Position numbers and translations under genes: made by a program. Under the pieces are notes generated by a model. It was not told the origin of the DNA. It saw only the letters and a program-made list of their open reading frames with translations, and searched no databases. DNA of 64,000 nt from Lachnospiraceae bacterium (GTDB lineage Bacteria; Bacillota; Clostridia; Lachnospirales; Lachnospiraceae): the NCBI GenBank assembly GCA_017622845.1, contig JAGAQJ010000002.1, positions 11,830 through 75,829 on the forward strand, written 5' to 3'. This document shows positions 2,461 to 51,155 of the stretch, piece after piece (position 1 is the first letter of the stretch; the number at the start of each line of letters is the position of its first letter).

Positions 2461-2471
2461 GGAGACAATCC

Positions 2472-4345: not shown

Positions 4346-4465
4346 TTGTTATTTGCAGAAATAAGTGATATAATTCCATGGATTTGTAGATGCGGATAAG
4401 GTGGCGCGTTCATACAGGAGGGGTCATGGCGAATCAGAAGCATATGGATAAAGCGAGGGACAACA

Positions 4466-6373: not shown

Positions 6374-6445
6374 CAGGAAGTAATGAGGATACTGAATCGT
6401 TACAATTGCAGAATAAAACAGGTAATAGAAAGGAAGAACCATATT

Positions 6446-6721
6446 ATGAAGAAGGACATATTAAAGAAGAACATATTACGATTAGCATGTGCAGGTTATT
6501 TAGGGGCGGCAGGTATGCTGCTGTTTGGTGTCAATGCACAGGCATACATTGACCCGTCGGTTGCGACTTATGCGATTCAGGCGATTGCCGGTATTGCAAT
6601 TGCAGTTGGTGCAGCTGTTGGAATTTATTTCAGGCGTGCCAAAAAGAAGATTAATGAGAAGCTTGGCGTAGACGAAAACCGCAACAAAGAGGTTGAGTCA
6701 GATGATATTGAGATAAAATAA
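6446..6721 (+). CDS. Small exported/membrane protein (signal peptide, one TM helix, charged tail)
   Basis: I chose the internal ATG at 6446 because an AGGAAG RBS sits at 6431-6436. There is a predicted AXA cleavage site (VNAQA/YIDPS), a hydrophobic stretch AIQAIAGIAIAVGAAVGIYF, then a K/E-rich tail. I do not recognise a family. Confidence 0.45.
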   Translation: MKKDILKKNILRLACAGYLGAAGMLLFGVNAQAYIDPSVATYAIQAIAGIAIAVGAAVGIYFRRAKKKINEKLGVDENRNKEVESDDIEIK

Positions 6722-6735
6722 CAGGCAGCTTTTAT

Positions 6736-6772
6736 GCAATTCAAGTACGCGGGAGCGTACTTGAATTGTTTC
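6736..6772. terminator. Perfect 14-bp hairpin between convergent genes
   Basis: CAATTCAAGTACGC-GGGA-GCGTACTTGAATTG is followed by TTTC on the + strand. It lies between the stop at 6721 (+) and the stop at 6785 (-). The U-tract is present only for the + transcript. Confidence 0.7.
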
Positions 6773-6784
6773 ATGCATACAAGC

Positions 6785-7270
6785 TCATCGCGACGGCATC
6801 ACAGTGCCGATGATATCCTCATATTTTACAGGTCCGATGTCCGGGCAGCGGCTGTCTTTGCTTTCGCTGTAGTTGTCGCCAAGGACAAAATATTCATCTT
6901 CATGAAGCAAAAGCGGAGAAGAAGCGGTGCCTGCATACGAGATTTGGGCGTTTTCGGGCAGTACGGAGGAAGGCTCGTCATTTACATACAGGATATTTTC
7001 CTCGATAGAAACCATATCGTTTGGCTTGGCAACGACACGTTTGATCAGGGTTGTCGACAAGGTATCACTGGAAAAGACAATGACATCGCCGTAGTCAGGC
7101 TGCTTCACATGCTTGTTGATGATTACAAGCTCCAGATTATGATATGTGGGAAGCATGGAATCGCCTTGTATTAATGCAAGCTGAAAATGATATCTTGAGA
7201 GATAGCCTGTCATGAAAAGGATAGAAAGAGCAAGTATCAAATTTTTATGTTTCTGTATTATTTTCTTCAT
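6785..7270 (-). CDS. lepB: Signal peptidase I (S26 family)
   Basis: It has the catalytic Ser box GDSMLPT, the Lys box LIKRVVAKPND, and GDNYSESKDSR. A GGGAGG RBS is present on the minus strand. This is the only minus-strand gene I call in the window. Confidence 0.85.
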   Translation of the reverse strand: MKKIIQKHKNLILALSILFMTGYLSRYHFQLALIQGDSMLPTYHNLELVIINKHVKQPDYGDVIVFSSDTLSTTLIKRVVAKPNDMVSIEENILYVNDEPSSVLPENAQISYAGTASSPLLLHEDEYFVLGDNYSESKDSRCPDIGPVKYEDIIGTVMPSR

Positions 7271-7438
7271 AAAATCCTCCCTTGCAAAGATTATATCACA
7301 CTAAAAAATGAAAGCAATGAGAATGGAAATTTAAGAAAAGCCGGACTAAAATAATGCAGGAATTATCTGAAAGTATGTCTGTATGGAATAGCGGTAATGC
7401 CGCTTAATGTTTTCAGGCGGCAGAGAGGAAGCAATTTG

Positions 7439-9211
7439 ATGAAGCGCAAATGGATATTTTTATATGTCATAATAATGATTGCCTGTTCCCTTCCAATCAT
7501 GAATCATTTTCTGATACGCGGCCACGACATCTATTTTCATCTGATGCGGATAGAAGGTCTTGCGGAGGGGTTAAGGTGCGGACAGTTTCCGGTCAGAATC
7601 CAGCCGGTATGGTATGGAGATTTTGGTTATGCGGTTTCTGTTTTCTACGGTGATTTATTTGTATATTTTGCAGCGATTCTCCGATTGCTTGGCTTTTCCC
7701 TGCAGAATGCCTACAAAGGTTATCTGCTGCTCTGTAATGCGGCGACAGTCTGCATCGCAGGCTATAGCTTCGGGAAAATTTTTAAAAATGCTTATGTGGG
7801 AGTCTTTGGCAGCGCACTTTACAGTCTTGCGGTATACAGGCTGGTAAATCTGTATACACGCGGCGCCCTGGGAGAATATACAGGCATGGCATTTCTGCCT
7901 CTGATTCTCTATGCCTGCACCTTGCTGCTGGATAAGGAGCGAAAGAAAGAAAATCTGAAAAAAGGAAGTTTTCTGCTTGGCATAGGTATGGCGTTTATAC
8001 TGCAAAGCCACATTTTGACGGCAGAGCTTACCGTGCTGATGCTGTGCGGTGTGGTTTTACTGTTTGCTAAGCGCGTTTTTCGGAAGGAAGTGCTTCTAAA
8101 CGGACTGCGTGCAGTTCTGATTGCAGTGGGGCTTAGTTTGTGGTTTCTTGTGCCATTTGGCGATTATATGCTCAACGGGAGCTATCAGATTAATGCGGCG
8201 GAGAGCGAAGAACCGCTGATACAGAGAGTGGGAATTTTTTTCTCGCAGATATTTCCGCTTTTTGACAATGCAGTGGGGGAGAGCCTTGATTTGAGTGCCG
8301 GGCCACAGGGAGATTTTGCACAGGGTGTAGGTCTTGGACTGTTTCTGGCGCTTCCGGCGATTGTTATTTTGACTGCATTTTTGAATAAGAAACTATATCA
8401 GGAATCCGAATGGCGGATTGCAATTGCGGCGGCGCTGTTTGGAGGTGCGGCAGTCTGCTGCAGCACCATCTATTTTCCGTGGGATTTCTTATGCAGGATA
8501 AGCAGTGTATTGAACTATGTGATTGTCAATATTCAATTTCCGTGGAGATTTACAGGAATAGCAGCAGTGTGTCTGACCCTGCTTTGGTGCGCCCTGGTTG
8601 TCCTTATAGGCAGGCACATGGGAAGGAAGCAGGCATTGGCGGCATCGATAACGGTTGTCCTGCTCATGTCCTTGTCAGCAGGTCATTATGTTATCGATTT
8701 GCTGGAGCGGGGACAGCGTATTCAGGTCAGGACACAGTCGGATATGGACAGCTATGTGGCATCGGGTGAGGAGTATTTGCCGTTGGGAACAGAGCCGGAG
8801 GAGCTTACGCCGGAGAGCTTATTGCAGGAGGAGGGTCTGGAGATAACCCAATATCAAAAAAATGGCTCCAATGTGCAGTTTTACTGTCGGAATCATACTG
8901 ATGAAACGAAGATACTGGAGCTTCCCCTGCTGTACTATGATGGATATGAGGCATATGGAGTGTCGGAAACTGGGAAAAAGTCTGATATAAATGTAACAGC
9001 AGGGAATAATAATGCTGTAAGGCTTTTGATAGAACCGGATATGAAGGCAGAGGTCTTTGTGCATTTTAAAGAGCCGTGGTATTGGAGACTTTCGGAAGTC
9101 ATTTCATTGATGTCAGTGCTGCTTTTGGCTTCTGGGGTGCGAAACAGCAGTAATAGTTCAGCCCAGAGGTTTGCACTCGCTGCAAACCTCGTAAGAAAAC
9201 GCAGCGGCTGA
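7439..9211 (+). CDS. Polytopic membrane protein, YfhO-like / GT-C-fold glycosyltransferase candidate
   Basis: The start is taken at the ATG at 7439 (RBS AGAGGAAG). It has more than 10 predicted TM helices. The N-terminal motif is GHDIYFHLMRIEGL...FGYAVSVFYGD, as seen in YfhO-type proteins. A C-terminal ~150 aa soluble part follows. The last ~20 codons (AQRFALAANLVRKRSG) lie inside an intergenic-type repeat. Confidence 0.6.
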   Translation: MKRKWIFLYVIIMIACSLPIMNHFLIRGHDIYFHLMRIEGLAEGLRCGQFPVRIQPVWYGDFGYAVSVFYGDLFVYFAAILRLLGFSLQNAYKGYLLLCNAATVCIAGYSFGKIFKNAYVGVFGSALYSLAVYRLVNLYTRGALGEYTGMAFLPLILYACTLLLDKERKKENLKKGSFLLGIGMAFILQSHILTAELTVLMLCGVVLLFAKRVFRKEVLLNGLRAVLIAVGLSLWFLVPFGDYMLNGSYQINAAESEEPLIQRVGIFFSQIFPLFDNAVGESLDLSAGPQGDFAQGVGLGLFLALPAIVILTAFLNKKLYQESEWRIAIAAALFGGAAVCCSTIYFPWDFLCRISSVLNYVIVNIQFPWRFTGIAAVCLTLLWCALVVLIGRHMGRKQALAASITVVLLMSLSAGHYVIDLLERGQRIQVRTQSDMDSYVASGEEYLPLGTEPEELTPESLLQEEGLEITQYQKNGSNVQFYCRNHTDETKILELPLLYYDGYEAYGVSETGKKSDINVTAGNNNAVRLLIEPDMKAEVFVHFKEPWYWRLSEVISLMSVLLLASGVRNSSNSSAQRFALAANLVRKRSG

Positions 9212-9285
9212 AAGACTCAAGGCACCACGAAGTGGTTCTGCATGCCTTGAGTCCGGTAACAGGAAGCCGAAGGCTGAACTGTTAC
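9154..9285 (+). repeat. Composite modular hairpin repeat (modules 1+2+3)
   Basis: Module 1 (9154-9215) is ~80% identical to 51226-51288. Module 2 (9214-9253) has a perfect 11-bp stem GACTCAAGGCA/TGCCTTGAGTC enclosing CCAC-GAA-GTGG. Module 3 (9256-9285), GTAACAGGAAGCCGAAGGCTGAACTGTTAC, is identical to 1069-1098. Confidence 0.8.
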
Positions 9286-9391
9286 AAACAGCAGGAGAAT
9301 ATCCAAAGGTTGCCGTTGCGAATAACACAGCTTTGTTATACAATAATATATGGGCAGCTGTTGAGCAGGCATACACATTTCCTGTTGCCTG

Positions 9392-10507
9392 GTGAGAAAA
9401 CGGATATTCAGCAGGCGAAAATATATCACCCGGAGTGATTTGGCATGTATTTGTGTACGCACGATGAGGGTACAAAGCAGTTGCATATATGGACTAAAAG
9501 ATGGAAGGATTGGGACAGTGGACAAGAACAGAAAAAAGGGAACCTTGTACATTGTGGTTCCCTGCTACAATGAGGAGGAAGCACTGGAGCTGTCGGCAAA
9601 AACGCTGCTGGACAAGCTTGGTGAAATGCAGAAGCAGGAAGTTGTCTCCAAGGAGAGCCGGATTGTATTTGTCGATGACGGTTCAAAAGACAGAACATGG
9701 GAATTGATACAGCAGTTATATCAGCAAAACGAAAATATTATCGGGCTTCGGTTTGCACATAACAGAGGCCATCAGAATGCAATCCTTGCAGGAATGATGT
9801 ATGCGAAGGACTTTTGCGATTATACGATTACCATAGATGCGGATTTGCAGCAGGATATCAATGCGATGGAGCGTTTTATCGGGGAATATGAGAAGGGCAG
9901 CGAGGTTGTATACGGCGTGAGAAATTCGCGCAGTACGGATGGATTCTTTAAGAAGCTGTCGGCAACGCTGTTTTACAAAACCATGCGGATAATGGGCTGT
10001 GACATCTACGAAAATTCCGCGGACTACAGGCTGATGAGCGCGAAAGCTTTGGAGGCATTGTCTGAATACAGCGAAGTTAATTTATTCCTAAGAGGGATTA
10101 TACCGGATATCGGATTAAAGTCCTCTGTCGTACATTTTGATGTATTTCCGCGCATGCAGGGGCAGTCCAAGTACTCACTCTCAAAGATGCTTACTCTGGC
10201 GGCGGACGGTATCACATCCTTTAGCATCAAGCCAATCAGAATGGTGCTGGCGATGGGAGTACTGGCGCTTCTGGTAGGCTTTGGCATGGTGATACACATT
10301 ATTTATGAGCATTATTTTGGATATACAGTCAGCGGATGGTCTTCCATACTGATGTCCATATGGATATTGGGAGGCGCTGTTTTGATATCGCTTGGCATTA
10401 TCGGAGAATATGTCGGAAGAAATTATCTGGAAACAAAGCGCAGGCCAAGATATTATTTTTGGGAAGTCCTGTCAAGGGACGAGAGGTTCGAGCATCATGA
10501 AGTATGA
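9392..10507 (+). CDS. GtrB/CsbB-like GT2 polyprenyl-phosphate glycosyltransferase (two C-terminal TM helices)
   Basis: GT2 blocks are present: LYIVVPCYNEEEAL, VFVDDGSKDRT and TIDADLQQD (DXD). The C-terminal TM pair is followed by GEYVGRNYLETKRRPRY, typical of GtrB. The true start is probably downstream of 9392, at the ATG at 9464 or the GTG at 9518 (preceded by GGAAGGA). Confidence 0.8.
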   Translation: MRKRIFSRRKYITRSDLACICVRTMRVQSSCIYGLKDGRIGTVDKNRKKGTLYIVVPCYNEEEALELSAKTLLDKLGEMQKQEVVSKESRIVFVDDGSKDRTWELIQQLYQQNENIIGLRFAHNRGHQNAILAGMMYAKDFCDYTITIDADLQQDINAMERFIGEYEKGSEVVYGVRNSRSTDGFFKKLSATLFYKTMRIMGCDIYENSADYRLMSAKALEALSEYSEVNLFLRGIIPDIGLKSSVVHFDVFPRMQGQSKYSLSKMLTLAADGITSFSIKPIRMVLAMGVLALLVGFGMVIHIIYEHYFGYTVSGWSSILMSIWILGGAVLISLGIIGEYVGRNYLETKRRPRYYFWEVLSRDERFEHHEV

Positions 10508-11627
10508 TAAAATTATTATCGGTGCAGGCTTGTATGGGCTGTATGCGGCGTATTACTGTGCAAGCCGCGGCCAGCATGTGCTGGTGCTGGAATGTGAGGA
10601 TGCGCCGTTTAAACGTGCGACCTATATCAATCAGGCACGCGTTCATCAGGGGTATCACTATCCGCGCTCACTTTCAACCGCGATGAAATCGGCGGGATAT
10701 TTTGCGCGGTTTAATGAAGACTATGGATTTTGTATTAACCGCGAATTTCATAAGGTGTATGCGACCTCAAGTGAATATTCGTGGTCTGACGGCGCCCAAT
10801 TTAAAAAATTCTGTGAGGCGGCGCAGATTCCATGCGAGGAGCTTCATCCGGGGAAATTCTTTAAGGAGGGCATGTGCGACGGTGCATTTCTTACCAGAGA
10901 ATACACCTATGACGCCATGATTTTAAGGGATTTTTTTATGGAGAAGCTTGCAGAGTCCGGCAGCAGGGCAGAGCTTCACTTTAGCGCTGATATTGAAAGG
11001 ATTGAAAAGACGCAGGACGCCTACGAGCTGTATGTATCGGAAAATGGCAATCTGATGAAATACAGCACCGGATTTCTGCTGAATGCCGCTTACGCATCTG
11101 CCAATCAGATATTGGATATGCTGGGGTTTGACAAGTTTGGAATCAAATACGAACTGTGTGAGATTATCCTGTGTGATGTCAATGATAAGCTGAGGGAATA
11201 CGGCTTTACCGTGATGGACGGTCCTTTTTTTTCCATTATGCCTTTTGGAAAAACGGGACTGCACTCGCTGACTTCCGTTACCTTTACACCGCATGCTACA
11301 AGCTATGAGGCAGTTCCGCATTTTCCATGTCAGGCGGACAGCGGCGGATACTGCAGCAGACATCATCTTGGCAATTGCAATGACTGCAAGGCGAAGCCGC
11401 AGACAGCGTTTCCGTATATGGCAAATCTTGCACGCAAGTATCTGCGGGAGGAATATCAGTTTTCCTATCAGGGTTCGCTGTTTTCCATGAAGCCTATCCT
11501 GACAAGCTCGGAGATTGATGATTCCAGACCGACCGTGGTACGGACATATTCGGTCAATCCGACCTTCGTAGGCGTGCTGTCGGGAAAAATCAATACAGTG
11601 TATGATTTGGATGATGTGCTGCAATAA
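10497..11627 (+). CDS. FAD-dependent oxidoreductase (DAO/GlpD-like N-terminus)
   Basis: The start at ATG 10497 overlaps the upstream stop by 11 nt. The dinucleotide fold reads YDKIIIGAGLYGLYAAYYCASRGQHVLVLE. No TM helix is predicted. It does not look like UDP-galactopyranose mutase. Confidence 0.7.
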   Translation: MKYDKIIIGAGLYGLYAAYYCASRGQHVLVLECEDAPFKRATYINQARVHQGYHYPRSLSTAMKSAGYFARFNEDYGFCINREFHKVYATSSEYSWSDGAQFKKFCEAAQIPCEELHPGKFFKEGMCDGAFLTREYTYDAMILRDFFMEKLAESGSRAELHFSADIERIEKTQDAYELYVSENGNLMKYSTGFLLNAAYASANQILDMLGFDKFGIKYELCEIILCDVNDKLREYGFTVMDGPFFSIMPFGKTGLHSLTSVTFTPHATSYEAVPHFPCQADSGGYCSRHHLGNCNDCKAKPQTAFPYMANLARKYLREEYQFSYQGSLFSMKPILTSSEIDDSRPTVVRTYSVNPTFVGVLSGKINTVYDLDDVLQ

Positions 11628-11652
11628 CATAATCACATACTGGGGGTAACAC

Positions 11653-12591
11653 ATGACGAACAAAGAAAAAAATTTTATATCTGCCGTGATTTATGTGCAC
11701 AATGATGAGAAGAACATAGGCAGCTTTCTGCAGATAGTCATGAATATACTGGAAGAGCATTTTGAGCATTCGGAGATTATCTGCGTCAACGACTATTCAC
11801 AGGACAGCAGCGTGGAAATTGTGCGCCGCATCAGCAGTGAGGCAGAAACCACTACGGTAACAGTGCTGAATATGAGCTATTTTCACGGCGTAGAGGTTGC
11901 GATGAATGCCGGAATGGACTTAGCCATCGGAGATTTTGTACTGGAGTTTGATTCCTGTGTGCCTGATTTTGCGCCGCAGGAAATTATGAGGGTTTACAAG
12001 AAGGCGCTGGAGGGCTATGATATTGTCAGCGCTTCACCAGACAAAAAACAGCGTTTCACGTCCAATATCTTTTACAGCGTGTTCAACAGATTTACAGATT
12101 TTTCATATAAGCTGTATACAGAGCGTTTCCGCGTGCTCAGCCGCAGAGTCATCAACCGCATCAGCAGCATGAACAAGTCGGTGCCGTACAGAAAAGCAGT
12201 ATATGCAAACTGCGGTCTTAAGACGATGAATCTGAGATATCCGACCGTCGGCGGCTGCCTGGACAAGGAGGATAAGACAGAACGCAAGTACCGGGCGGAT
12301 CTTGCAGTTGACAGTATGATCCTGTTTACAGAGGTGGGATATCGGTTTTCTGTCACGATGACGGTGCTAATGATGCTTGTAGCGATATTTGTAGCGGTGT
12401 ATTCGGCAGTGATCTATCTGTTCAGTACGCCTGTTGCAGGCTGGACAACAACAATATTCTTTATGTCCTTTGCATTTTTTGGACTGTTTGGAATTCTGAC
12501 CATTATCATCAAGTATCTGCAGATATTGGTAGACCTCGTATTCAGGCGCAAAAAATACAGTTTTGAGAGCATCGAAAAGATAACAAAGTAG
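11653..12591 (+). CDS. GtrB-fold GT2-like membrane protein with apparently degenerate catalytic motifs
   Basis: It has a GT2-like N-terminus (ISAVIYVHNDEKNI, ICVNDYSQDSS) and a C-terminal TM pair as in GtrB. The position expected for DXD reads LEFDSCV. Confidence 0.55.
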   Translation: MTNKEKNFISAVIYVHNDEKNIGSFLQIVMNILEEHFEHSEIICVNDYSQDSSVEIVRRISSEAETTTVTVLNMSYFHGVEVAMNAGMDLAIGDFVLEFDSCVPDFAPQEIMRVYKKALEGYDIVSASPDKKQRFTSNIFYSVFNRFTDFSYKLYTERFRVLSRRVINRISSMNKSVPYRKAVYANCGLKTMNLRYPTVGGCLDKEDKTERKYRADLAVDSMILFTEVGYRFSVTMTVLMMLVAIFVAVYSAVIYLFSTPVAGWTTTIFFMSFAFFGLFGILTIIIKYLQILVDLVFRRKKYSFESIEKITK

Positions 12592-12626
12592 CAGGATAAA
12601 AGATAACAGGGAAAGAGGAAAAACAT

Positions 12627-13592
12627 ATGGTAGCATTGGTGGGTTATACAGGATTTGTAGGAAGCAATATTTATTCAAGAGCAAGGAACCGTATCGACGG
12701 AGTATTTAACTCGCAGAATATTGAGAAGGCATACGGATTGGAGCCGGAGGTGCTGATTTATGCAGGCCTGCGTGCAGAAAAGTATCTGGCGAACAGTGCG
12801 CCTGAGTGCGATTTGGAACTGATTCTGCAGGCGGAAGAAAATATCAGAAAAATCAATCCGCAGAAGCTGATACTGATTTCTACGATTGATGTGTACAAAA
12901 ATCCTGTCGGCGTGGACGAAAACGATTCGCCGCTGTCTGACGGAGAGGGCGGAAAGGGAAGCGTAATGCTTCCGTATGGGCTGAACAGGTATTATTTGGA
13001 AGCGTGGGTCAGAAAGCACTATCCTGATGCGCTGATTGTACGCCTTCCGGCGCTTTACGGACACAATATCAAGAAGAATTTTATCTATGACTTTATCAAT
13101 GTCATACCTTTTATGCTGAAAAAGGAGAAATATGAGGAACTGAAGGCGCTTGAGAAGGCAGGCGACGATATTCTGCTTGATGAATGTTATGAGGCGCTTG
13201 ATAACGGCTTTTACAGATGCATGAAGCTTGACAGGGACAAGAAGGAGCTTCTGCAGAAAAAGTTTAAAAAGCTTGGTTTTACGGCACTGAATTTTACGGA
13301 CAGCCGAAGCATATTTCAGTTTTATCCTTTGAGCCGTTTGTGGGAGGATATACAGACAGCCTTTCGGGAGGAAATCACACTGCTGAATCTTGCAACAGAG
13401 CCGATTTCGGCAGGTGAGCTGTATAAGAGCCTTACCGGAGAGAGCTTTAAAAATGAATTAGCCGGGACTCCTGCAAAATATGATTTCAGAACAATCCATG
13501 CAGAGAAGTTCGGCGGAAAGTCAGGCTATATCTGCGGCAAGGCTGAAATTATGGAGGATATCAGACAGTATGTGGAGGGCAGTCAGGTATAG
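12627..13592 (+). CDS. NAD(P)-binding SDR-fold protein, RmlD-like reductase family
   Basis: It has the Rossmann motif VGYTGFVGSN. The block order is like RmlD (LILISTIDVY ... PYGLNRYYLEAWV ... LIVRLPALYGHN). The YxxxK position reads YGLNR. Confidence 0.55.
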   Translation: MVALVGYTGFVGSNIYSRARNRIDGVFNSQNIEKAYGLEPEVLIYAGLRAEKYLANSAPECDLELILQAEENIRKINPQKLILISTIDVYKNPVGVDENDSPLSDGEGGKGSVMLPYGLNRYYLEAWVRKHYPDALIVRLPALYGHNIKKNFIYDFINVIPFMLKKEKYEELKALEKAGDDILLDECYEALDNGFYRCMKLDRDKKELLQKKFKKLGFTALNFTDSRSIFQFYPLSRLWEDIQTAFREEITLLNLATEPISAGELYKSLTGESFKNELAGTPAKYDFRTIHAEKFGGKSGYICGKAEIMEDIRQYVEGSQV

Positions 13593-13747: not shown

Positions 13748-13777
13748 TTGACAATGAAGTTCAGACAAACATATAAT
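13748..13777 (+). promoter_or_regulatory. Near-consensus sigma-A promoter (TTGACA-18 nt-TATAAT)
   Basis: TTGACA lies at 13748-13753 and TATAAT at 13772-13777. The predicted transcript start is ~170 nt upstream of the cotH-like start. Confidence 0.55.
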
Positions 13778-13850
13778 CATTTACAGACAGACAGACAGAA
13801 CTGGAGTTCTCTAGTGCTCTTTTTTATGTGGAATATTGCAGAAATGAGAA

Positions 13851-13904
13851 GAAGGCAGAGCAATGCATTGTATTTTAGCAGTGCATTCACTGCCTTTCTT
13901 TTTG
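13851..13904 (+). terminator. Intrinsic-terminator-like hairpin in the leader of the CotH operon
   Basis: The outer stem is AAGGCAG/CTGCCTT and the inner stem is AATGCA/TGCATT, followed by TCTTTTTGTG. It lies between the promoter at 13748 and the start codon at 13954. Confidence 0.55.
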
Positions 13905-13953
13905 TGTTGATTGTCAGACAGTAATATTCTATATCAGAAAAGGATTAAAAGAG

Positions 13954-15678
13954 ATGGGATTTCATAATAGAAATTATATAAGAGCGCTGGTAATGACAGC
14001 AATGGCGTCTGTCGTCCTTGCGATGGGAATCGTTGAGGAGACAAAAAGCAGCAATGCGAAAATCGAACAAATGCAGACAGAGGAGAGCGGCGGTCAGGAG
14101 TTTGGCTTATATGTATGGATGAATCATCAGCAGAAAATAAAGAGCTGGTACAATCAGCAGGATAACAGCTATTATCTTTTTATTCCCGGTGCAATGGAGG
14201 GAAAAAAGCTGAATCTGACGTTTCTTGGGGCGGAATCTCTTTCTATTGATGACAGGAAAGTGGGCAATGGAGACAAGTGCCGGCTGAAAGAGGGACACCA
14301 CATCATTAGAACCGGAGAGCCGCAAGACAGTAAGGCATATGATTTAGAGGTGATGTATACATCGGGAATTGCATCACTGTTTTTGGAAACGGAGTCCGGA
14401 ACGCTTAAATTTATCCATGAATCAAAGGAAAATGAGGAATCGGGCAGCATGTATATCATGGACAGCCGGGGCAGCAAGTATTATGAAGGAACGATTGAGG
14501 ATATTCATTGCCGCGGAAATTCGTCCTATGAGGATACGGACAAGAAATCTTACTCGATTAAGCTGAGCAAAAAGGCTGATTTGTTTGGAATGGGGGAGGA
14601 CAGAAAGTGGATTCTCACAGCGAATGCCTTTGACGATACCCTTCTTAGGAATACGATAGCCTTTGATATTGCCGAGTCGCTTAAGCTTGCATATACGCCT
14701 GAGACTGAGTATGCAGATGTGTGGGCAAACGGTGAATTTATCGGAAATTATCTGTTATCCGAGAAGATAGAGGTTGGGAAAAACAGAGTCAATATTGGGA
14801 ATCTTGAAGATGATACGATGGAGCTTAACGGCAGCCCTGAGCCGGAGACGCTCGAGTTTTTTATGGAACAGCAGGGAAGACTGTTCAGCACAAAAGGTTA
14901 TAAGTATGAGAAAGAGCCGGACAATACAGAAGGAGGGTATTTGCTGGAATTGGAAACAAGCGACCGGTATGGTTTGGAGGCAAGCGGATTTCTGACCTCA
15001 AGAATGCAGCCTGTCGTGTTTGCAAGCCCGAAATATGCTTCTTATGACCAAGTGTCTTATATCGCAAATCGTTATCAGGATTTTGAGGATGCAGTATTTT
15101 CCGAGGATGGCTATAGTCCATATACGGGAGCAGTTTACAGCGATTATATTGACATGGATTCCTTTGCGCGCAAGTACCTGATGGAGGAGCTTACCAAAAA
15201 TCTGGACGCTTCTTTCACAAGCCAGTACCTATATAAGTATGCAGACAGCATCAGCAGGAAGTTTTATGCAGGTCCGTGCTGGGATTATGATAAGTCAATC
15301 GCAGCGTCCGGAATAACGGAGGACGGCATTGACCTGCATGACCCGGTTGGTCTGTATGCAGCTGTTCAGAAGAAGGATTCCGATATATGGTATGCCTTAT
15401 ACCAGCATGAGGATTTCAGAAGGCTGGCTGCCAAAATCTTTTTTGAGGAGCTGGAACCGCAGCTAAGGGCAGATGCCAGAGAGCTGATTGAAGGCTATGC
15501 ATCGCTTATCAGTGCGTCCAACGACTGCAATATGATGCGGTGGAACACCTTCCCGCAGGCTGAGGAGCTGTCGGAGAAAAAAGAGCTGCATCAGGATAAG
15601 GTGGACGAGCTTGCAGAGTTTCTTGACAAACGTCTTGACTTTTTGGAGAGTGAGTGGGGAGATTTGTATAATGAGTAA
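13954..15678 (+). CDS. CotH kinase-family protein with an N-terminal signal anchor
   Basis: The CotH family block is CRGNSSYEDTDKKSYSIKLSKKADLFGMGEDRKWILTANAFDDTLLRNTIAFDIAE...WANGEFIGNYLLSEKIEV. One N-terminal TM helix is predicted (ALVMTAMASVVLAMGIV). Confidence 0.8.
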   Translation: MGFHNRNYIRALVMTAMASVVLAMGIVEETKSSNAKIEQMQTEESGGQEFGLYVWMNHQQKIKSWYNQQDNSYYLFIPGAMEGKKLNLTFLGAESLSIDDRKVGNGDKCRLKEGHHIIRTGEPQDSKAYDLEVMYTSGIASLFLETESGTLKFIHESKENEESGSMYIMDSRGSKYYEGTIEDIHCRGNSSYEDTDKKSYSIKLSKKADLFGMGEDRKWILTANAFDDTLLRNTIAFDIAESLKLAYTPETEYADVWANGEFIGNYLLSEKIEVGKNRVNIGNLEDDTMELNGSPEPETLEFFMEQQGRLFSTKGYKYEKEPDNTEGGYLLELETSDRYGLEASGFLTSRMQPVVFASPKYASYDQVSYIANRYQDFEDAVFSEDGYSPYTGAVYSDYIDMDSFARKYLMEELTKNLDASFTSQYLYKYADSISRKFYAGPCWDYDKSIAASGITEDGIDLHDPVGLYAAVQKKDSDIWYALYQHEDFRRLAAKIFFEELEPQLRADARELIEGYASLISASNDCNMMRWNTFPQAEELSEKKELHQDKVDELAEFLDKRLDFLESEWGDLYNE

Positions 15679-16357
15679 ATACAGACATGAATACAAATAC
15701 ATCTGTTCGGATACACAGCTGGTCCTGCTGAGAAACAGGCTTGAGGGGCTGATGGAATACGATAAATATGCAGGACAGGACGGAACCTATATGATTCGGA
15801 GCCTGTACTTTGACGATTACCTTGACAGCTGCCTCCGGGACAATATCAATGGTACGGACCCCAGAGAGAAATTCAGGCTTCGGCTCTATAACGGCGATGC
15901 CTCCTATATCAGACTGGAGCTGAAAAGGAAGGAACGCGGAAAGACACTCAAATCCTCCTGCAGAATCGACGAGGAATTGTGTGAAAAAATGGTACGGGGA
16001 GTTCCGCTGAAGATGGATGCGGTTGATTCAAAAGTTTACCGCAAGTTTTGTCTGATGCAGCATACCAGGCTGCTGAAGCCCAAGGTGATTGTAGAATATG
16101 ACCGTGTGCCGTATGTCTACAGGGATGGCAATGTCAGAGTCACCTTTGACAGGAATATCAGAAGCGGAGCGGCAATAGAACGCTTTATGGAAAAAAATGT
16201 GATAACAAGACCTGTCATGTCCTGTGGTCAGCATGTTTTAGAAGTGAAATTTGACGAGCTGATTCCGGATTTTATATATTCTGCCATACAGATTGAAAAG
16301 CTGCAGCAGACAACATACTCCAAATACTATATATGCCGGAAATACAGTTTAGGATAG
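15671..16357 (+). CDS. VTC-domain (polyphosphate-polymerase-like, triphosphate-tunnel) protein
   Basis: The start ATG at 15671 overlaps the cotH stop (ATGAGTAA). VTC blocks are present: YRHEYKY, YMIRSLYFDD, REKFRLRLY, IRLELKRKERGKTLK. No TM helix is predicted. Confidence 0.75.
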   Translation: MSKYRHEYKYICSDTQLVLLRNRLEGLMEYDKYAGQDGTYMIRSLYFDDYLDSCLRDNINGTDPREKFRLRLYNGDASYIRLELKRKERGKTLKSSCRIDEELCEKMVRGVPLKMDAVDSKVYRKFCLMQHTRLLKPKVIVEYDRVPYVYRDGNVRVTFDRNIRSGAAIERFMEKNVITRPVMSCGQHVLEVKFDELIPDFIYSAIQIEKLQQTTYSKYYICRKYSLG

Positions 16358-16383
16358 GAAGTACAGTTCAGGAGGAAATCAAT

Positions 16384-17058
16384 ATGAGTTTTAAGGACGT
16401 GTTAAAAAAATCATTTGTGAATAATTTCACAACAGCCGATATGACTTTTACAGAGGTGCTGTTGATACTGGCAATTACACTGCTTTTTGCGTTGTATATC
16501 TTTTTCATTTACAGGATATTAACAAGGAAAAATTTCTACAATAAAAACTTTAATATCTCGCTTGCAGCGATTGCAATGATTACTGCTGCCGTAATTATTA
16601 CGATTCAGTCAAGCATTGTCGTTTCGCTTGGTATGGTAGGCGCGCTGTCTATTGTGAGATTTCGGACGGCAGTGAAGGACCCGCTTGACCTTGTATTTAT
16701 GTTCTGGGCGTTGGCAGTCGGCATTATATGCGGTGTCGGCCTGTTTTACATTGCAGGAATACTGTCAATTCTTGTGACGATAACGATATTCATACTGGAT
16801 AAGCTTCCGGCGGCACAGGCGCCTATGATTCTGATGGTGCAGGCTGTGTACTGTGATATGGAGGGCGATATCAGCAGCGTGGTATCGGAGTTTACAAAGT
16901 ATTACAAGGTGAAATCAAGAAATATTACACCGGAGAGGACCAGCATCGTGATGGAGCTTCGGGTGAAAGACGGAGGAAGCCTCGTACAGAAATTAAGCGG
17001 CATGGACGGAGTGGAATATGTATCCATCATTGACCATGACGGGGAAGTGACATACTGA
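16384..17058 (+). CDS. DUF4956-family membrane protein
   Basis: The start ATG at 16384 follows an AGGAGGA RBS. The signature is LGMVGALSIVRFRTAVKDPLDLVFMFWALAVGIICGVG. It has 4-5 TM helices and a ~70 aa soluble C-terminus. Confidence 0.7.
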   Translation: MSFKDVLKKSFVNNFTTADMTFTEVLLILAITLLFALYIFFIYRILTRKNFYNKNFNISLAAIAMITAAVIITIQSSIVVSLGMVGALSIVRFRTAVKDPLDLVFMFWALAVGIICGVGLFYIAGILSILVTITIFILDKLPAAQAPMILMVQAVYCDMEGDISSVVSEFTKYYKVKSRNITPERTSIVMELRVKDGGSLVQKLSGMDGVEYVSIIDHDGEVTY

Positions 17059-17077
17059 TGAAGGAATGAAGGGCGTA

Positions 17078-17167
17078 TATGGTTTCACTGAACAGAAAAC
17101 GGCAGCCGGAGGGATATTATCTGACGTTTTCGTCCGGATAAGAATGCATAAAAAGCTGAACTGTAAC
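17078..17167 (+). repeat. ~90-nt intergenic repeat (module 4 plus a half module 3)
   Basis: TATGGTTTCACTGAACAGAAAAC-[hairpin]-GTTTTCGTCCGG..AATGCATAAAA(A/G)GCTGAACTGT(T)AC is shared with 33279-33361. The internal 11-bp stem shows a compensatory G-C to U-A change between the two copies. Confidence 0.75.
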
Positions 17168-20624: not shown

Positions 20625-21422
20625 ATGAAGCTTTCAATTTCAAATATTGCATGGAATGCGCAGGAGGACTCTGCGGTTTATTCGATGATGAAAAAATATG
20701 GTTACACGGGACTCGAAATTGCGCCGACACGCATTATAGAACAGGCTCCGTATCAAAATCTCAAGGCTGCAGAGAGCTGGCGCGAGACACTTGATTTTGA
20801 TGTTCCCTCTATGCAGTCTATTTGGTTTGGAAAGACGCAGAAGCTGTTTGGAGGCGAAGCAGACAGACAGGAGCTTTTGGACTATACGAAGGCGGCGGTT
20901 GACTTTGCAAAGACTGTCCGGTGCGGCAATCTGGTCTTTGGAAGCCCGAAAAACAGAGCGCTTCCTGATACGGCGGACAAGAAATTGCGGCAGGCAGGCG
21001 TTGCTTTTTTTAGAGAGCTTGGGGATTATGCGGCACAAAATGGTACGGCAATCGGTATGGAGGCAAACCCTGCAATATACAGCACAAACTACATCAATAC
21101 GACACAAGAAGCGCTGAATCTCATCAGAGAGGTTGGCTCAGACGGCTTTCTGCTGAATCTTGATGTCGGAACGATGATTGAGAACAGGGAGTCCGTGGAG
21201 CTTCTTGAGGGGTATGCCGCGCAAATCAATCATGTGCATATCAGTGAACCGTTTTTGAAGCCTGTTGTCATCAGCCCTGAAAGGAGACAGCTTCATGGCG
21301 GGCTTGCAGCATTTTTGAGGGAAAATGATTATCAGGGATATGTCTCTGTCGAAATGGGCAGAACAGAGGAGCTTTCCGTTATTGAGGAAATTCTGGCATA
21401 TGTAAAGGAGATGTTTGCATGA
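20625..21422 (+). CDS. Xylose-isomerase-like TIM-barrel protein (sugar-phosphate isomerase/epimerase family)
   Basis: The start is taken at ATG 20625, because the track ORF start at 20406 overlaps the GH78 gene. The pattern fits AP-endonuclease-2/xylose-isomerase-like barrels: KLSISNIAW...GYTGLEIAP...GNLVFGSPKNR...GMEANP...HVHISE. Confidence 0.6.
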   Translation: MKLSISNIAWNAQEDSAVYSMMKKYGYTGLEIAPTRIIEQAPYQNLKAAESWRETLDFDVPSMQSIWFGKTQKLFGGEADRQELLDYTKAAVDFAKTVRCGNLVFGSPKNRALPDTADKKLRQAGVAFFRELGDYAAQNGTAIGMEANPAIYSTNYINTTQEALNLIREVGSDGFLLNLDVGTMIENRESVELLEGYAAQINHVHISEPFLKPVVISPERRQLHGGLAAFLRENDYQGYVSVEMGRTEELSVIEEILAYVKEMFA

Positions 21423-22213
21423 TTTATGAGGGAGGAAACGGCGTTCCTGCTTTTTCGTGTGAGGAGTATGCGCCTAAGACAAGCGATTATGCGGTGCTGA
21501 TTCCGGTTATCAATGAAGGAGAGCGCATTTTAAAGGAGCTTTACCGCGCGTATAAGCATGAAATTGCAAAGCATGCAGATATTGTAATCTGCGACGGCGG
21601 TTCGACGGATGGAAGCACGCAGGAGCGAAAGCTTAGAAAGCTTCAGGTGAATACGCTGCTTGTGAAAAAGGATAAGGGAAAGCAGGGCGCACAGCTTCGT
21701 ATGGGGATTTACTGGGCGCTGCAGAGAGGCTATCGGGGGATTATTACCATTGACGGAAATAACAAGGACAGTATCGAGGATATTCCGTGTTTTATCCGGA
21801 AGCTTGAAGAAGGGTATGATTTTGTGCAAGGCTCCCGCTTTATTAAGGGCGGACGTGCGATTAACACGCCTTTTATCAGAAATATATCGGTGCGATTGAT
21901 TCATGCGCCCGTGATTTCGCTCACTGCCGGACAGCGCTTTACCGATACCACGAATGCCTACAGGGCTTATTCGGCAAGATATCTAAGCGATGCAGAGGTT
22001 GCGCCGCTTCGGGACGTATTTATGACCTATGAGCTGCTTGCGTATTTATCGGTCAGGGCAACACAGCTTGGATATAAAGCATGTGAGATACCAGTTACAA
22101 GAGCCTATCCGAAAGCAGGAAAGACACCGACCAAAATCAGCTTTTTCAAGGGAAACAGCGAACTGCTGAAAATTTTGTTTAAAAATCTGTTTGGTGCATA
22201 TAATCCAAAATAG
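21419..22213 (+). CDS. Soluble GT2, Dpm1-like (polyprenyl-phosphate sugar synthase-like)
   Basis: It has an ATGA overlap with the upstream gene. Blocks are YAVLIPVINEGERI, ICDGGSTDGS, ITIDGNNKD and VQGSRFIKGG. Confidence 0.65.
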   Translation: MIYEGGNGVPAFSCEEYAPKTSDYAVLIPVINEGERILKELYRAYKHEIAKHADIVICDGGSTDGSTQERKLRKLQVNTLLVKKDKGKQGAQLRMGIYWALQRGYRGIITIDGNNKDSIEDIPCFIRKLEEGYDFVQGSRFIKGGRAINTPFIRNISVRLIHAPVISLTAGQRFTDTTNAYRAYSARYLSDAEVAPLRDVFMTYELLAYLSVRATQLGYKACEIPVTRAYPKAGKTPTKISFFKGNSELLKILFKNLFGAYNPK

Positions 22214-50642: not shown

Positions 50643-50677
50643 GAAACCGGACGGCTATTGCTTAGCTGTCTGGTTTC
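50643..50677 (+). terminator. Hairpin downstream of the phosphohexomutase gene (weak U-tract)
   Basis: GAAACCGGACGGC-TATTGCTTA-GCTGTCTGGTTTC forms a 13-bp stem including two G-U pairs that work only on the + strand RNA. Confidence 0.4.
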
Positions 50678-50711
50678 ATTCATGCACATAGACAGAGAAG
50701 ATGGAGTTTTT

Positions 50712-51155
50712 ATGAAAAAATTATTTGCCCAGATAATTAAATTCGGTTTTGTCGGCGGTCTTTGCTTTTTAATTGATTTTGTAATTTCCACGGTATTATT
50801 TCATCTGCTGATTCATGCGGTTTCCAGAAATATGGCTACGGCAGTCGGCGGATTTTTTGGCTTCACCATTTCCGTGATTGTCAATTATGTCCTCAGCATG
50901 AAGTTTGTGTTTGAGCGCAAGGAGGACATGAGCAGAAAAAAAGAATTTGTCATCTTTATCATATTGAGCGTGATTGGACTTGGAATCAATGAGGTGATCC
51001 TGCTTGCATGCAGCGCTATGTATGAGGGCAGTGCTGTCCTTATGGCGGCCTTTGGAGATACATTGTGGTTTGCAGTTTCTAAAGTGATTGCGACAGCAAT
51101 AGTAATGGTTTATAATTTTATCAGCAGAAAGATTTTTTTAGAGAAGAAATCCTGA
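50712..51155 (+). CDS. GtrA-family membrane protein (candidate polyprenyl-P-sugar flippase)
   Basis: The sequence reads MKKLFAQIIKFGFVGGLCFLIDFVIST...VNYVLSMKFVF...YNFISRKIF. It is 147 aa with four TM helices. Confidence 0.8.
   Translation: MKKLFAQIIKFGFVGGLCFLIDFVISTVLFHLLIHAVSRNMATAVGGFFGFTISVIVNYVLSMKFVFERKEDMSRKKEFVIFIILSVIGLGINEVILLACSAMYEGSAVLMAAFGDTLWFAVSKVIATAIVMVYNFISRKIFLEKKS

Follow-up and report, generated by a model that had tools for sequence, protein, structure and literature searches.

A candidate cassette for epimerization of a carrier-bound hexose beside a lineage-specific decoration pair in a Lachnospiraceae bacterium

Epimerization of a sugar at the level of its lipid carrier has precedents. 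One is the DprE1/DprE2 pair, and another is the SDR epimerase ORF13 of Und-P-pentofuranose three-component systems (PMC11127046). The first-pass annotation of a 64,000-nucleotide stretch of Lachnospiraceae DNA (the window) had suggested a possible DprE1/DprE2 logic for five consecutive genes. These five plus-strand reading frames are real (7439–13592), but they do not form the conserved unit. The region instead consists of a lineage-specific decoration pair, encoding a GT-C-like protein and the synthase GtrB1, plus part of a conserved mobile cassette whose core comprises FAD, GT2b, SDRl, TIM and GT2s (Table 1). The last two genes, overlooked in the annotation, lie 7 kb downstream, and a CotH–VTC–DUF4956–rhamnosidase block is inserted within the core, splitting it. 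The cassette is widespread and, as our literature search turned up no account of it, apparently undescribed. We propose, with a probability of roughly one half, that through it a carrier-bound hexose is oxidized, epimerized at the neighboring carbon and reduced again, then flipped and transferred.

Table 1. Coordinates of the decoration pair, the cassette core and the candidate flippase in the window.
Feature	Coordinates	Strand	Evidence
Polytopic membrane protein, GT-C-like	7439..9211	+	PF10131 sub-threshold; 8 or more hydrophobic segments
Canonical GtrB/CsbB/PgfS-type polyprenyl-phosphate sugar synthase (GtrB1)	9518..10507	+	PF00535, PgfS, ArnC
FAD-dependent dehydrogenase, DAO/GlpO family (FAD)	10497..11627	+	PF01266 at 1.2e-13
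Membrane-anchored GtrB-fold GT2 (GT2b)	11653..12591	+	PF00535 8.3e-13; PgfS 5.9e-25
RmlD-like extended SDR, Tyr-x3-Arg motif (SDRl)	12627..13592	+	AlphaFold/Foldseek; sub-threshold Epimerase/RmlD Pfam
Xylose-isomerase-like TIM barrel, ketose 3-epimerase/3-keto-glucoside 4-epimerase type (TIM)	20625..21422	+	PF01261 7.3e-16
Soluble DPM1/PpgS/AglJ-like GT2 (GT2s)	21419..22213	+	PF00535 at 5.5e-7
GtrA-family 4-TM protein	50658..51155	+	PF04138 at 1.2e-16

Synteny was counted in 63 related loci that extend at least 7 kb downstream. GT2b directly follows the FAD gene in all 63. A reductase is present in 61 (58 RmlD-like SDRs and 3 aldo-keto reductases), TIM and a large polytopic protein in 57 each, and GT2s in at least 52, a lower bound because large insertions push GT2s beyond the counting range in some loci. 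The co-occurrence that the annotation had put forward as a test, linking FAD and SDR genes to genes of the GtrB fold, was found, although the conserved partner is GT2b and not the canonical synthase, which adjoins the FAD gene in only 13 of the 63 loci. In Paenibacillus, Francisella and Acetothermia the five core genes sit side by side. The full set also occurs on plasmids of Psychrobacter and Azospirillum, where GT2b scores weakly; a Cereibacter plasmid has four unambiguous members, its GT2b candidate being marginal. The route had been suggested for Firmicutes, but the system is not specific to them. The cassette is horizontally mobile, and on a 10.8-kb Psychrobacter plasmid it is the sole cargo besides replication and mobilization genes.

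Fusions join several of the components. TIM–FAD proteins occur (in hhalign, E 1.5e-5 across 195 columns, among which the catalytic ones coincide), as do Gfo/Idh/MocA–FAD proteins, a GT2b–GT2s protein on a Psychrobacter plasmid, and a GT2s–PMT_2 protein in Cereibacter, where PMT_2, a GT-C family, scores 29.1 bits (cut-off 26.1). These fusions support a single pathway. Two functions show non-orthologous displacement, the reductase (SDR, AKR or GFO) and the flippase (an EamA pair resembling ArnE/ArnF, GtrA or SMR).

The first gene of the region encodes a protein of 590–604 residues. Its single Pfam match, to PTPS_related (PF10131, E 3.5e-5), reaches 22.9 bits against a 26.4-bit cut-off; we take this family to belong to the GT-C clan. 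No YfhO match was found in Pfam, and neither NCBIfam nor PDB sequences gave a match. With one match below cut-off and none to YfhO, "GT-C-like" is plausible, whereas the original label "YfhO-like" is unsupported; the other four of the five domain calls hold. GtrB1 is indeed a canonical synthase, matching PF00535 (9.6e-26) and, among NCBIfam models, PgfS best (3.5e-62) and ArnC (2.9e-38). It contains a DAD motif, and its orthologs have two C-terminal TM segments. It probably starts at the GTG at 9518, with a GGAAGGA ribosome-binding site just before that codon. The GT-C-like protein is probably the partner of this synthase, as a lineage-specific neighbor, and its gene is outside the conserved cassette.

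In its original form, the proposal was a plain two-step inversion of DprE1/DprE2 type, in which one carbon of a GtrB1-made Und-P-sugar would be inverted for use by the upstream GT-C. The ATG of the FAD gene (10497) does overlap the GtrB1 stop (10505–10507), by 11 nt in the window, as annotated, and by 8 nt in locus L001, and phage and viral FAD with a reductase alone suggest a two-step inversion as the minimal unit. We nevertheless consider this explanation very improbable. Besides the infrequent adjacency of GtrB1, which marks that synthase as a lineage-specific addition, nothing equivalent to the window's GT-C occurs close to FAD in any of the 80 related loci, and a hairpin (9214–9253, 11-bp stem) and a promoter-like site (9316–9344) set the GT-C gene apart from the rest. 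TIM and GT2s, on the other hand, are found with FAD at most loci and in different phyla. Their presence in the conserved core makes oxidation, neighbor-carbon epimerization and reduction more likely than a plain two-step inversion.

The FAD protein is DAO-type and not VAO-type, as first called, which makes its relation to DprE1 one of analogy rather than homology. It represents a distinct family of 499 clusters (50% identity, E < 1e-30) with the signature NQARVHxGYHYPRS, and identity across the 80 loci is 69–87%. The invariant His50 aligns with catalytic His51 of Mycoplasma pneumoniae GlpO (PDB 4x9m), the base that removes the proton of the hydroxyl group. At pLDDT 52, the AlphaFold model of this enzyme is too poor to give active-site geometry, a point against our best reading. 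We propose that it oxidizes a ring CH–OH of a sugar to a ketone. Many of the carriers are strict anaerobes, an observation that bears on the electron acceptor of the flavoenzyme and was counted against our best reading.

SDRl gave an AlphaFold model with pLDDT 92, whose top Foldseek matches are GalE, GDP-4-keto-6-deoxymannose reductase and RmlD (E about 1e-10, TM about 0.6). This extended SDR fold, together with PF04321 in many homologs, agrees with the initial assignment as an SDR/RmlD-like reductase. GxxGxxG, S85-T86 and Y117-G-x-x-R121 are invariant, and SDRl is proposed to be an NAD(P)H-dependent keto-reductase. The reductase partner of FAD comes in three folds: SDR or, in its place, aldo-keto reductase, both encoded next to FAD, and Gfo/Idh/MocA, present as a fused domain. 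The pairing of FAD enzyme and reductase is very robust. The nearest solved relatives of TIM are ketose 3-epimerases and the 3-keto-glucoside 4-epimerase YcjR; its family profile matches D-tagatose 3-epimerase (8xiv, 6.7e-7) and YcjR (6wn6, 6e-5). The metal and catalytic residues E147, D181, H206 and E244 are invariant, and TIM is a putative epimerase of the carbon adjoining the keto group.

These three enzymes could instead, as the annotation itself had allowed, act on a soluble nucleotide sugar, for example turning UDP-glucose into a rare UDP-hexose before GT2 loading, flipping and GT-C transfer. We regard this as possible but doubtful. The top 50 Foldseek matches of SDRl are almost all nucleotide-sugar enzymes (GalE, RmlB, RmlD, GDP-keto-sugar reductases), the remaining few being uncharacterized SDR-family proteins; this neighborhood was also counted against our best reading. 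Gfo/Idh/MocA enzymes include UDP-sugar 3-dehydrogenases, and it is this fold that occurs fused to the FAD domain. Phage versions lie among nucleotide-metabolism genes without genes for GT2b, GT2s or a flippase, which fits a nucleotide-sugar substrate in phages. Within DNA-replication modules of large-phage contigs, FAD occurs together with SDRl or as TIM–FAD, and neither GT2b nor GT2s lies within 10 kb. Gfo/Idh/MocA–FAD fusions occur in 37 of the 80 best viral loci, where no GT2b- or GT2s-type gene is adjacent and a few show weak generic GT2 matches. However, nucleotide-sugar keto chemistry is normally carried out by SDRs with bound NAD, and we know of no DAO-type flavoenzyme that oxidizes a nucleotide sugar. 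The closest relatives of TIM use free ketoses or simple 3-keto-glycosides, short SDRl forms (259–263 aa) have a reduced C-terminal domain, and the cassette contains no nucleotidyltransferase. Moreover, the FAD gene always has the membrane-anchored GT2b beside it, often with translational coupling between the two (overlaps of 1–4 nt in L081 and L083–L085). In the cassette the redox steps would take place on the lipid-linked sugar, as had been suggested; the phage versions, lacking GT2b and GT2s, show that the redox enzymes can work in other contexts and that a lipid carrier is not required in all of them.

The two GT2 proteins differ in their features. GT2b was correctly called a second GtrB-fold protein; it matches PF00535 and PgfS, and its orthologs have two C-terminal TM segments. 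Its DXD-equivalent position reads E-F-D in the window and varies in distant members, with degenerate forms in some lineages, such as NLN in Psychrobacter and LLD in Azospirillum. GT2s, whose reading frame shares 4 nt with the end of TIM, is strongly conserved (71–86% identity across loci), with D-G-N replacing DXD; its best NCBIfam matches are dolichyl-phosphate hexose transferase, AglJ, PpgS and ArnC. We propose that GT2s is the catalytic subunit of a polyprenyl-phosphate sugar synthase and that GT2b is either such a synthase or its anchor subunit. The need for two such synthase-like proteins is left unexplained by our best reading. Their atypical metal-binding motifs would fit a different arrangement, in which both are ordinary glycosyltransferases of another acceptor (a cytoplasmic glycolipid, a growing lipid-linked polymer or glycosylated phage DNA) and the redox trio remodels the sugar once it is there. 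YcjR-type epimerization accepts plain glycosides with any aglycone, and in one large-phage family the gene just upstream of FAD encodes an uncharacterized 364-aa protein, which a single contig shows fused to FAD; this is compatible with a transferase followed by remodeling on its product. This arrangement is nonetheless improbable for the cassette, given that both proteins best match polyprenyl- or dolichyl-phosphate sugar synthases, that a Cereibacter protein combines GT2s with a GT-C domain, and that three families of flippase-type genes are embedded in the cassette.

Flippase-type and GT-C-type genes accompany the cassette in related loci, where a GtrA, SMR or EamA (ArnE/F-like) gene lies inside it. 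In the window, the GtrA protein is the sole flippase-type candidate, and we tentatively assign it to the cassette system. For most of the large polytopic proteins within the cassette no Pfam or PDB relative was found, so their GT-C nature is only putative. Elsewhere, the window encodes RmlA, RmlB, RmlC, Wzm/Wzt, multidomain GT2 proteins, an LCP ligase and a rhamnosidase.

The sequences show the gene content with its synteny and fusions, the folds, and the conservation of catalytic residues; from these we infer the chemical steps of the following scheme, together with its sugar, the division of labor between the GT2 proteins and an electron acceptor for the flavoenzyme. GT2s, anchored or assisted by GT2b, would transfer a common hexose from its nucleotide-linked form to undecaprenyl phosphate on the cytoplasmic side of the membrane. 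The flavoenzyme would then turn one ring hydroxyl into a ketone, with His50 as the base, and the metal-dependent TIM barrel would invert the adjoining carbon through an enediolate. SDRl with NAD(P)H, or in other lineages an aldo-keto reductase or the fused Gfo/Idh/MocA domain, would reduce the ketone. The resulting rare hexose epimer, still carrier-bound, may be flipped by the small GtrA, SMR or ArnE/F-type transporter, and a large polytopic, GT-C-type transferase would place it on a rhamnan-type wall polysaccharide, presumably the product of the window's own ABC-transporter pathway.

Such a cassette may account for the diversity of surface sugars among many gut bacteria. Its proposed chemistry follows the same logic as both DprE1/DprE2 and YcjQRS, with folds unrelated to either.

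The flavoenzyme gene of the window (FAD) belongs to a conserved gene cassette that is widespread and mobile. When an alignment of FAD homologues was used to scan genomes, one per species, at least 578 species genomes matched. In the best 80 loci, FAD is 69–87% identical, and the record titles include Lachnospiraceae, Oscillospiraceae, Erysipelotrichaceae, Treponema and Flexilinea. Gene order across these 80 loci, determined by tblastn and ORF clustering, is recurrent: FAD, a membrane-anchored GT2 (GT2b), an RmlD-like SDR (SDRl), at least one large polytopic protein, a 265-aa TIM barrel (TIM; PF01261) and a soluble 264-aa GT2 (GT2s). The cassette often ends with two EamA proteins of ~110 aa, which in NCBIfam match ArnE and ArnF best. 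Partners were counted at the 63 loci where 7 kb or more of sequence follows the FAD gene. GT2b was present at all 63 and a reductase at 61 (58 SDRl and three aldo-keto reductases), TIM and a large polytopic protein occurred at 57 each, and GT2s at 52 or more, with further copies just beyond the counting range. Genetic linkage of the redox pair to GtrB and GT-C genes had been proposed for the window; it is borne out for GT2b and SDRl, but a canonical GtrB lies at only 13 of the 63 loci, and tblastn and ORF clustering found no counterpart of the window GT-C-like protein near the FAD gene in any related locus.

The first-pass annotation had boxed five genes as a lipid-linked sugar epimerisation module. 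All five ORFs are found in the window, whose cell-envelope genes form a single long array on the + strand. The canonical GtrB-type synthase (GtrB1) matches PF00535 at 9.6e-26, has D-A-D as its DXD motif and most likely starts with GTG at position 9518; the reported 11-nt overlap between its stop and the FAD start is real. FAD matches the DAO family (PF01266, 1.2e-13), and GT2b, described as a second GtrB-fold protein, matches PF00535 at 8.3e-13. For both GtrB1 and GT2b, the leading NCBIfam matches are PgfS and ArnC, and orthologues show two C-terminal TM segments. The reductase assignment stands on structural matches to extended SDRs, although its Pfam Epimerase and RmlD scores are below threshold. 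The protein called a YfhO-like GT-C is polytopic, but the YfhO label was not sustained: for 7397-9211, no YfhO family match was obtained, the Pfam scan gave PF10131 alone, below cut-off, and NCBIfam gave nothing. Directly 3' of this gene is a hairpin with a perfect 11-bp stem (GACTCAAGGCA...TGCCTTGAGTC) that lacks a T-run and is followed by a promoter-like site, and the two probably mark a transcription-unit boundary inside the box. As a functional unit, the five-gene box does not hold. GtrB1 and the GT-C-like protein are lineage-specific neighbours outside the unit, while TIM and GT2s had been left out. In the window, a block of CotH, VTC, DUF4956 and rhamnosidase genes lies between SDRl and TIM and splits the cassette; in the closest relatives of the window locus, TIM and GT2s come directly after SDRl, and in L006–L008 the block is upstream of the GtrB gene. 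Because this insertion displaces TIM and GT2s in the window, both were missed.

Coordinates of the cassette genes and associated features in the window and in the compared loci
Feature	Location	Coordinates	Remarks
2-Aminoethylphosphonate genes	window	15-6373	class-V aminotransferase, cytidylyltransferase–PEP mutase fusion, nucleotidyltransferase, TPP-dependent decarboxylase; then YidC–CDP-glycerol glycerophosphotransferase fusion
First-pass five-gene box	window	7439-13592	
GT-C-like protein	window	7439-9211	
Hairpin	window	9214-9253	
Promoter-like site	window	9316-9344	
GtrB1	window	9518-10507	
FAD	window	10497-11627	
Cys insertion of FAD	window	11328-11387	residues 278-297
GT2b	window	11653-12591	
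SDRl	window	12627-13592	
Sigma-70 consensus	window	13748-13777	TTGACA-18-TATAAT
CotH–VTC–DUF4956 trio and rhamnosidase, with sigma-70 consensus	window	13748-20527	
CotH–VTC–DUF4956–rhamnosidase block	window	13954-20527	
TIM	window	20625-21422	
GT2s	window	21419-22213	
GH25 muramidase genes flanking rmlB and rmlA	window	29600-36862	
GtrA-family gene	window	50658-51155	
TIM–FAD fusion	L082	10001-11785	P0393, 594 aa
Phage block X-FAD-SDRl-Y-Z	L086	10001-14493	X fused to FAD
Phage block X-FAD-SDRl-Y-Z	L090	6904-11324	
Phage block X-FAD-SDRl-Y-Z	L091	6914-11307	
Phage block X-FAD-SDRl-Y-Z	L092	6905-11285	
GT2b–GT2s fusion	L087 (plasmid pA22P4)	5410-7188	592 aa; gene table gives 6403-7188
GT2s–PMT_2 fusion	L089 (Cereibacter sphaeroides plasmid)	10555-13074	839 aa

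Distant FAD homologues (26–40% identity), whose loci were searched with profiles from the Lachnospiraceae cassette proteins, retain the same partners. All five core proteins adjoin in Paenibacillus sp. V4I9. They also lie side by side in Francisella sp. SYW-2, together with a GtrA gene, and on a Candidatus Acetothermia contig, together with an EamA gene. Plasmids of Psychrobacter and Azospirillum each carry the five, with GT2b scoring weakly, while four are clear on a plasmid of Cereibacter sphaeroides, where the GT2b candidate is marginal. Apart from genes for its replication and mobilisation, the Psychrobacter plasmid pA22P4 (10.8 kb) carries nothing but the cassette: SDRl, TIM, an SMR transporter, FAD, a GT2b–GT2s fusion and a 479-aa protein with seven TM segments. 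The loci of the window, Paenibacillus, Acetothermia and Azospirillum are of the ABC-transporter polysaccharide type, and rhamnose genes are present in the window and the Paenibacillus locus. Flippase-type genes of three families (an EamA pair, GtrA or SMR) lie inside the cassette in other loci; the window offers a single candidate, a GtrA-family gene ~37 kb off. No specific NCBIfam model exists for any of the five core proteins, and no account of the cassette, nor any mention of the plasmid name pA22P4, turned up in our literature searches.

FAD has an N-terminal GxGxxG Rossmann motif, and a relative matches PF01266 at 7.8e-25 over profile positions 1-335 of 353. No VAO/PCMH-type FAD-binding domain was found with Pfam, NCBIfam or PDB profiles; the first-pass remark that the flavoenzyme is of DAO type instead of VAO type, and the relation to DprE1 therefore one of analogy, is thus upheld. 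The family is distinct, with 499 clusters (50% identity) at E < 1e-30 against the family profile, and the best solved relative of that profile is the glycerophosphate oxidase (GlpO) of M. pneumoniae. The family signature NQARVHxGYHYPRS contains the invariant His50, which, by alignment alone, corresponds to chain position 85 of 4x9m_A, His51 of mature GlpO. His51 is proposed to take the proton off the substrate hydroxyl, and L2HGDH has an equivalent histidine (PMC10726252). This correspondence appears to place FAD in the alcohol-oxidising branch of the DAO family. The AlphaFold model of FAD was poor (pLDDT 52, from a shallow alignment of 23 sequences at 75–91% identity) and was not used for fold search. 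FAD carriers include both strict anaerobes and aerobes.

Other assignments of FAD were considered. A non-redox enzyme resembling UDP-galactopyranose mutase fits only at the N-terminal Rossmann motif, the full length fitting DAO, and is also contradicted by the conservation of a reductase partner in three folds. The match to polyprenyl or geranylgeranyl reductases is limited to the N-terminal 35 residues. FAD also carries a Cys-x7-Cys-x7-Cys-x2-Cys insertion, which is conserved in Clostridia, Treponema, Flexilinea, Francisella, Paenibacillus, Acetothermia and L085 members. Its absence from the Psychrobacter, Azospirillum, Cereibacter and phage members excludes an essential redox centre, and the insertion is probably a structural metal site.

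The proposed oxidase and reductase logic is supported by the reductase partner, which comes in three folds: SDRl, an aldo-keto reductase or a fused Gfo/Idh/MocA domain. The AlphaFold model of SDRl (pLDDT 92) matches the extended SDRs GalE, GDP-4-keto-6-deoxymannose reductase and RmlD, with Foldseek probability 1.00 to GalE, RmlD and RMD. A G6-x-x-G9-x-x-G12 motif and a Ser-Thr pair are invariant, and Thr86 and Tyr117 are conserved. The catalytic Lys of RmlD- and GalE-type extended SDRs was not found in SDRl, which has Tyr-Gly-x-x-Arg instead, with Arg121 invariant at the usual Lys position in all members, phage ones included. With its extended fold and Tyr-x3-Arg, SDRl also differs from the classical ~250-aa SDRs of DprE2 type, which have Tyr-x3-Lys. 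We rejected SDRl as the RmlD missing from the rhamnose genes of the window, since its occurrence follows that of the FAD gene rather than of rml genes, and a canonical RmlD exists in Paenibacillus in addition to SDRl. An aldo-keto reductase replaces SDRl in four loci (three among those counted). In a variant cassette (L020, L052, L021 and L079), an aldo-keto reductase and an extra GtrB-like GT2 replace SDRl and GT2s; L020 and L052 are two copies within one Pseudobutyrivibrio MAG.

TIM is xylose-isomerase-like (PF01261, 7.3e-16), and its profile matches include ketose 3-epimerases (8xiv, 6.7e-7) and the 3-keto-D-glucoside 4-epimerase YcjR (6wn6, 6e-5). Its metal and catalytic set, E147, D181, H206 and E244, is invariant. 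YcjR and two dehydrogenases interconvert gulosides and glucosides via 3-keto-glycosides, as cited in PMC11543891. TIM and FAD also occur as one polypeptide. The N-terminal domain of these ~590–625-aa proteins aligns with TIM over 195 columns (hhalign E 1.5e-5), the Glu, Asp, His and Glu columns coincide, and one member has a weak PF01261 match. The protein P0265, in the reverse order FAD–TIM, was rejected as a true fusion and left out as evidence because it appears to be a deletion or assembly join within both domains. A second fusion joins Gfo/Idh/MocA to FAD: in P0350, PF01408 scores 6.6e-14, and the N-domain of viral fusions of 565–620 aa, with the signature GxGxxG...EKP, aligns with this part of P0350 at E 5e-11.

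Of the two GT2s, GT2s is the more conserved (71–86% identity) and has an invariant D-G-N at the DXD position. The equivalent in GT2b is E-F-D in the window and E-I-E, Q-F-E, L-L-D or N-L-N elsewhere. The GT2b motif is lost in Psychrobacter, where both proteins are fused in one continuous ORF that includes the TM helices and reads N-L-N; the gene table gives its 3' part alone. As a working guess, GT2b would be the membrane subunit of a heteromeric synthase and would also pass the product to the flavoenzyme. The Cereibacter fusion of GT2s has ~10 TM segments and a PMT_2 domain (a GT-C family) that scores over the Pfam cut-off, so synthase-like and transferase-like parts lie in one polypeptide. 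Some of the polytopic proteins of the cassette are DUF6020-related, and most are without a Pfam or PDB relative: the Pfam scan of families c4, c13, c21, c27 and c17 gave nothing, and the PDB profile search found no relative of c13 and c21. Most are therefore putative, unproven GT-C proteins.

These fusions and displacements are difficult to account for other than by a single pathway for all the parts, in which a keto intermediate would be made and reduced and the carrier-bound sugar delivered across the membrane. The most economical chemistry would oxidise one ring carbon, epimerise its neighbour and then reduce. The sugar is probably a hexose. Butyrivibrio polysaccharide is reported to contain L-altrose, which is D-galactose epimerised at C5; we speculate that a 4-keto route of this type could yield it.

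The redox steps could act on the lipid-linked sugar or on a nucleotide sugar. The latter would agree with SDRl, whose solved relatives all use such substrates. That version fits poorly with the invariable adjacency and frequent translational coupling of FAD and GT2b, with a cassette that carries no nucleotidyltransferase and with the preference of TIM relatives for plain glycosides; moreover, we know of no DAO-type enzyme acting on nucleotide sugars. On these grounds, we consider the nucleotide level rather unlikely and infer, at about even odds, that the substrate in cells is a lipid-linked sugar.

Viral contigs add a second setting. Scanning IMG/VR with the alignment of FAD relatives found them on 146 contigs, of which the best 80 were examined (L100–L172 among them). 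Gfo/Idh/MocA–FAD fusions were present in 37 of these best 80 loci, the full cassette (a GtrB-like GT2, FAD, SDRl, TIM and GT2s) in two (L097 and L098), and FAD, SDRl and TIM in another two (L095 and L168). In a family of large phages (contigs of 20–172 kb, GC 35–40%), a block of an uncharacterised protein X (~364 aa), FAD, SDRl and the likewise uncharacterised proteins Y (~315 aa) and Z (~124 aa) lies between DNA polymerase and SNF2 helicase genes, near topoisomerase II and dUTPase genes. The PDB profile search found no relative of X or Y, and neither GT2b nor GT2s was found within 8–10 kb on either side of the block. The 198-kb contig of L082 encodes a TIM–FAD protein whose cluster comprises 318 sequences; its neighbours are phage genes for replication (RecJ-like exonuclease, helicase, primase and thymidylate kinase). 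Since these contexts are without GT2b and GT2s, the redox enzymes seem able, at least there, to act beyond lipid-linked sugar, and the phage block may serve to alter a sugar carried by a nucleotide or by modified DNA. A further-reaching reading, to which we give a probability of about 0.35, is that FAD, TIM and the reductase form an undescribed portable glycoside epimerisation unit. In cells it would act at the membrane on Und-P hexose within a self-contained, mobile seven-gene decoration cassette, as a hexose-level counterpart of DprE1/DprE2, and in large phages on a nucleotide or glycosylated-DNA sugar.

Other genes of the window also concern the cell envelope. Next after the 2-aminoethylphosphonate synthesis and activation genes comes an unusual gene that fuses YidC-type insertase and CDP-glycerol glycerophosphotransferase domains; together they suggest that phosphonate or phosphodiester groups decorate the same wall polymer. 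The CotH kinase-like, VTC-domain and DUF4956 membrane protein trio stands behind a perfect sigma-70 consensus, and a 1082-aa GH78 alpha-L-rhamnosidase with a lipoprotein-like N-terminus comes after it. Within the polysaccharide locus, two GH25 muramidase genes flank rmlB and rmlA; the product of the first has 1127 aa and contains Big_2 domains and choline-binding repeats.

If the proposed mechanism is correct, it would be the first hexose-level route based on GT2 synthases that remakes a sugar on or next to the lipid carrier before its addition to a surface glycan, extending a principle known for pentofuranoses (DprE1/DprE2 and the Und-P-ribose systems). Carriers include many Lachnospiraceae, which are abundant in the gut and whose largely uncharted wall glycans are potential immune ligands and phage receptors. 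The presence of the cassette on plasmids and viral contigs suggests a role resembling serotype conversion, and the phage versions raise the separate question of whether phages remodel sugars as part of their DNA metabolism. DprE1, of which the flavoenzyme would be an analogue, is a validated drug target, and the cassette enzymes could serve for making rare hexose glycosides.

The closest functional parallel is DprE1/DprE2, in which a flavoenzyme oxidises the carrier-bound sugar and a separate NAD(P)H reductase reduces the keto intermediate (PMC11127046). Homologues act in D-Araf glycosylation of Pseudomonas pilin. The DprE genes lie near a small flippase-type gene and GT-C transferases (PMC11127046). 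Both systems pair a flavoenzyme with a reductase for a product used outside the membrane. However, DprE1 is VAO-type and DprE2 a classical SDR, whereas the cassette has a DAO/GlpO-type enzyme (PF01266) and an extended, RmlD-like SDR with Tyr-x3-Arg. The DprE donor is made from PRPP by a UbiA-type enzyme, while the synthases of the cassette are GT2-type, and its TIM-barrel epimerase and second GT2 are extra relative to the DprE system. The three-component Und-P-pentofuranose systems of Citrobacter youngae O1/O2 likewise use auxiliary epimerases in side-chain decoration; there, cytoplasmic epimerisation of a monosaccharide already attached to the carrier is proposed to precede its flipping and its transfer by a GT-C (Kelly et al. 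2024, PMC11127046). They rely on a PRPP-dependent polyprenyl phosphoribose synthase, a MATE-type flippase and either the GalE-like SDR ORF13 or DprE1/E2, with nothing resembling the trio of FAD, TIM and reductase. The authors of that work know no other epimerases in side-chain glycosylation systems (PMC11127046).

The Arn pathway (ArnC, ArnD, ArnE/ArnF and ArnT) shares an ArnC-like GT2 and a small EamA pair like ArnE/ArnF. There, ArnD deformylates Und-P-L-Ara4FN, a modification of the sugar on undecaprenyl phosphate, and a GT-C then transfers it. In contrast to the proposal for the cassette, ArnA and ArnB carry out the redox steps at the nucleotide-sugar level and deformylation alone takes place on the lipid; neither flavoenzyme nor TIM barrel is involved. 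E. coli YcjQ, YcjR and YcjS follow the chemical logic proposed for the cassette, oxidising a glycoside hydroxyl, epimerising its neighbour with a xylose-isomerase-like TIM barrel and reducing the product. Both of their redox steps use NAD-dependent dehydrogenases, one Gfo/Idh/MocA-type and one zinc-dependent MDR-type, whereas a flavoenzyme would perform the oxidation in the cassette; YcjQRS is also catabolic and soluble, the cassette biosynthetic and membrane-linked. In GtrA/GtrB/GtrV, CsbB/YfhO and GacI/J/K/L, a GT2 polyprenyl-phosphate sugar synthase that has C-terminal TM helices works with a small flippase and a polytopic GT-C. Like the cassette, which occurs on plasmids and viral contigs, classical gtr cassettes are mobile. 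Oxidoreductases and epimerases go unmentioned in a 2021 review of the multi-component glycosylation systems of Gram-positive bacteria. Those systems move the sugar unchanged, whereas the cassette carries three remodelling enzymes and a second GT2.
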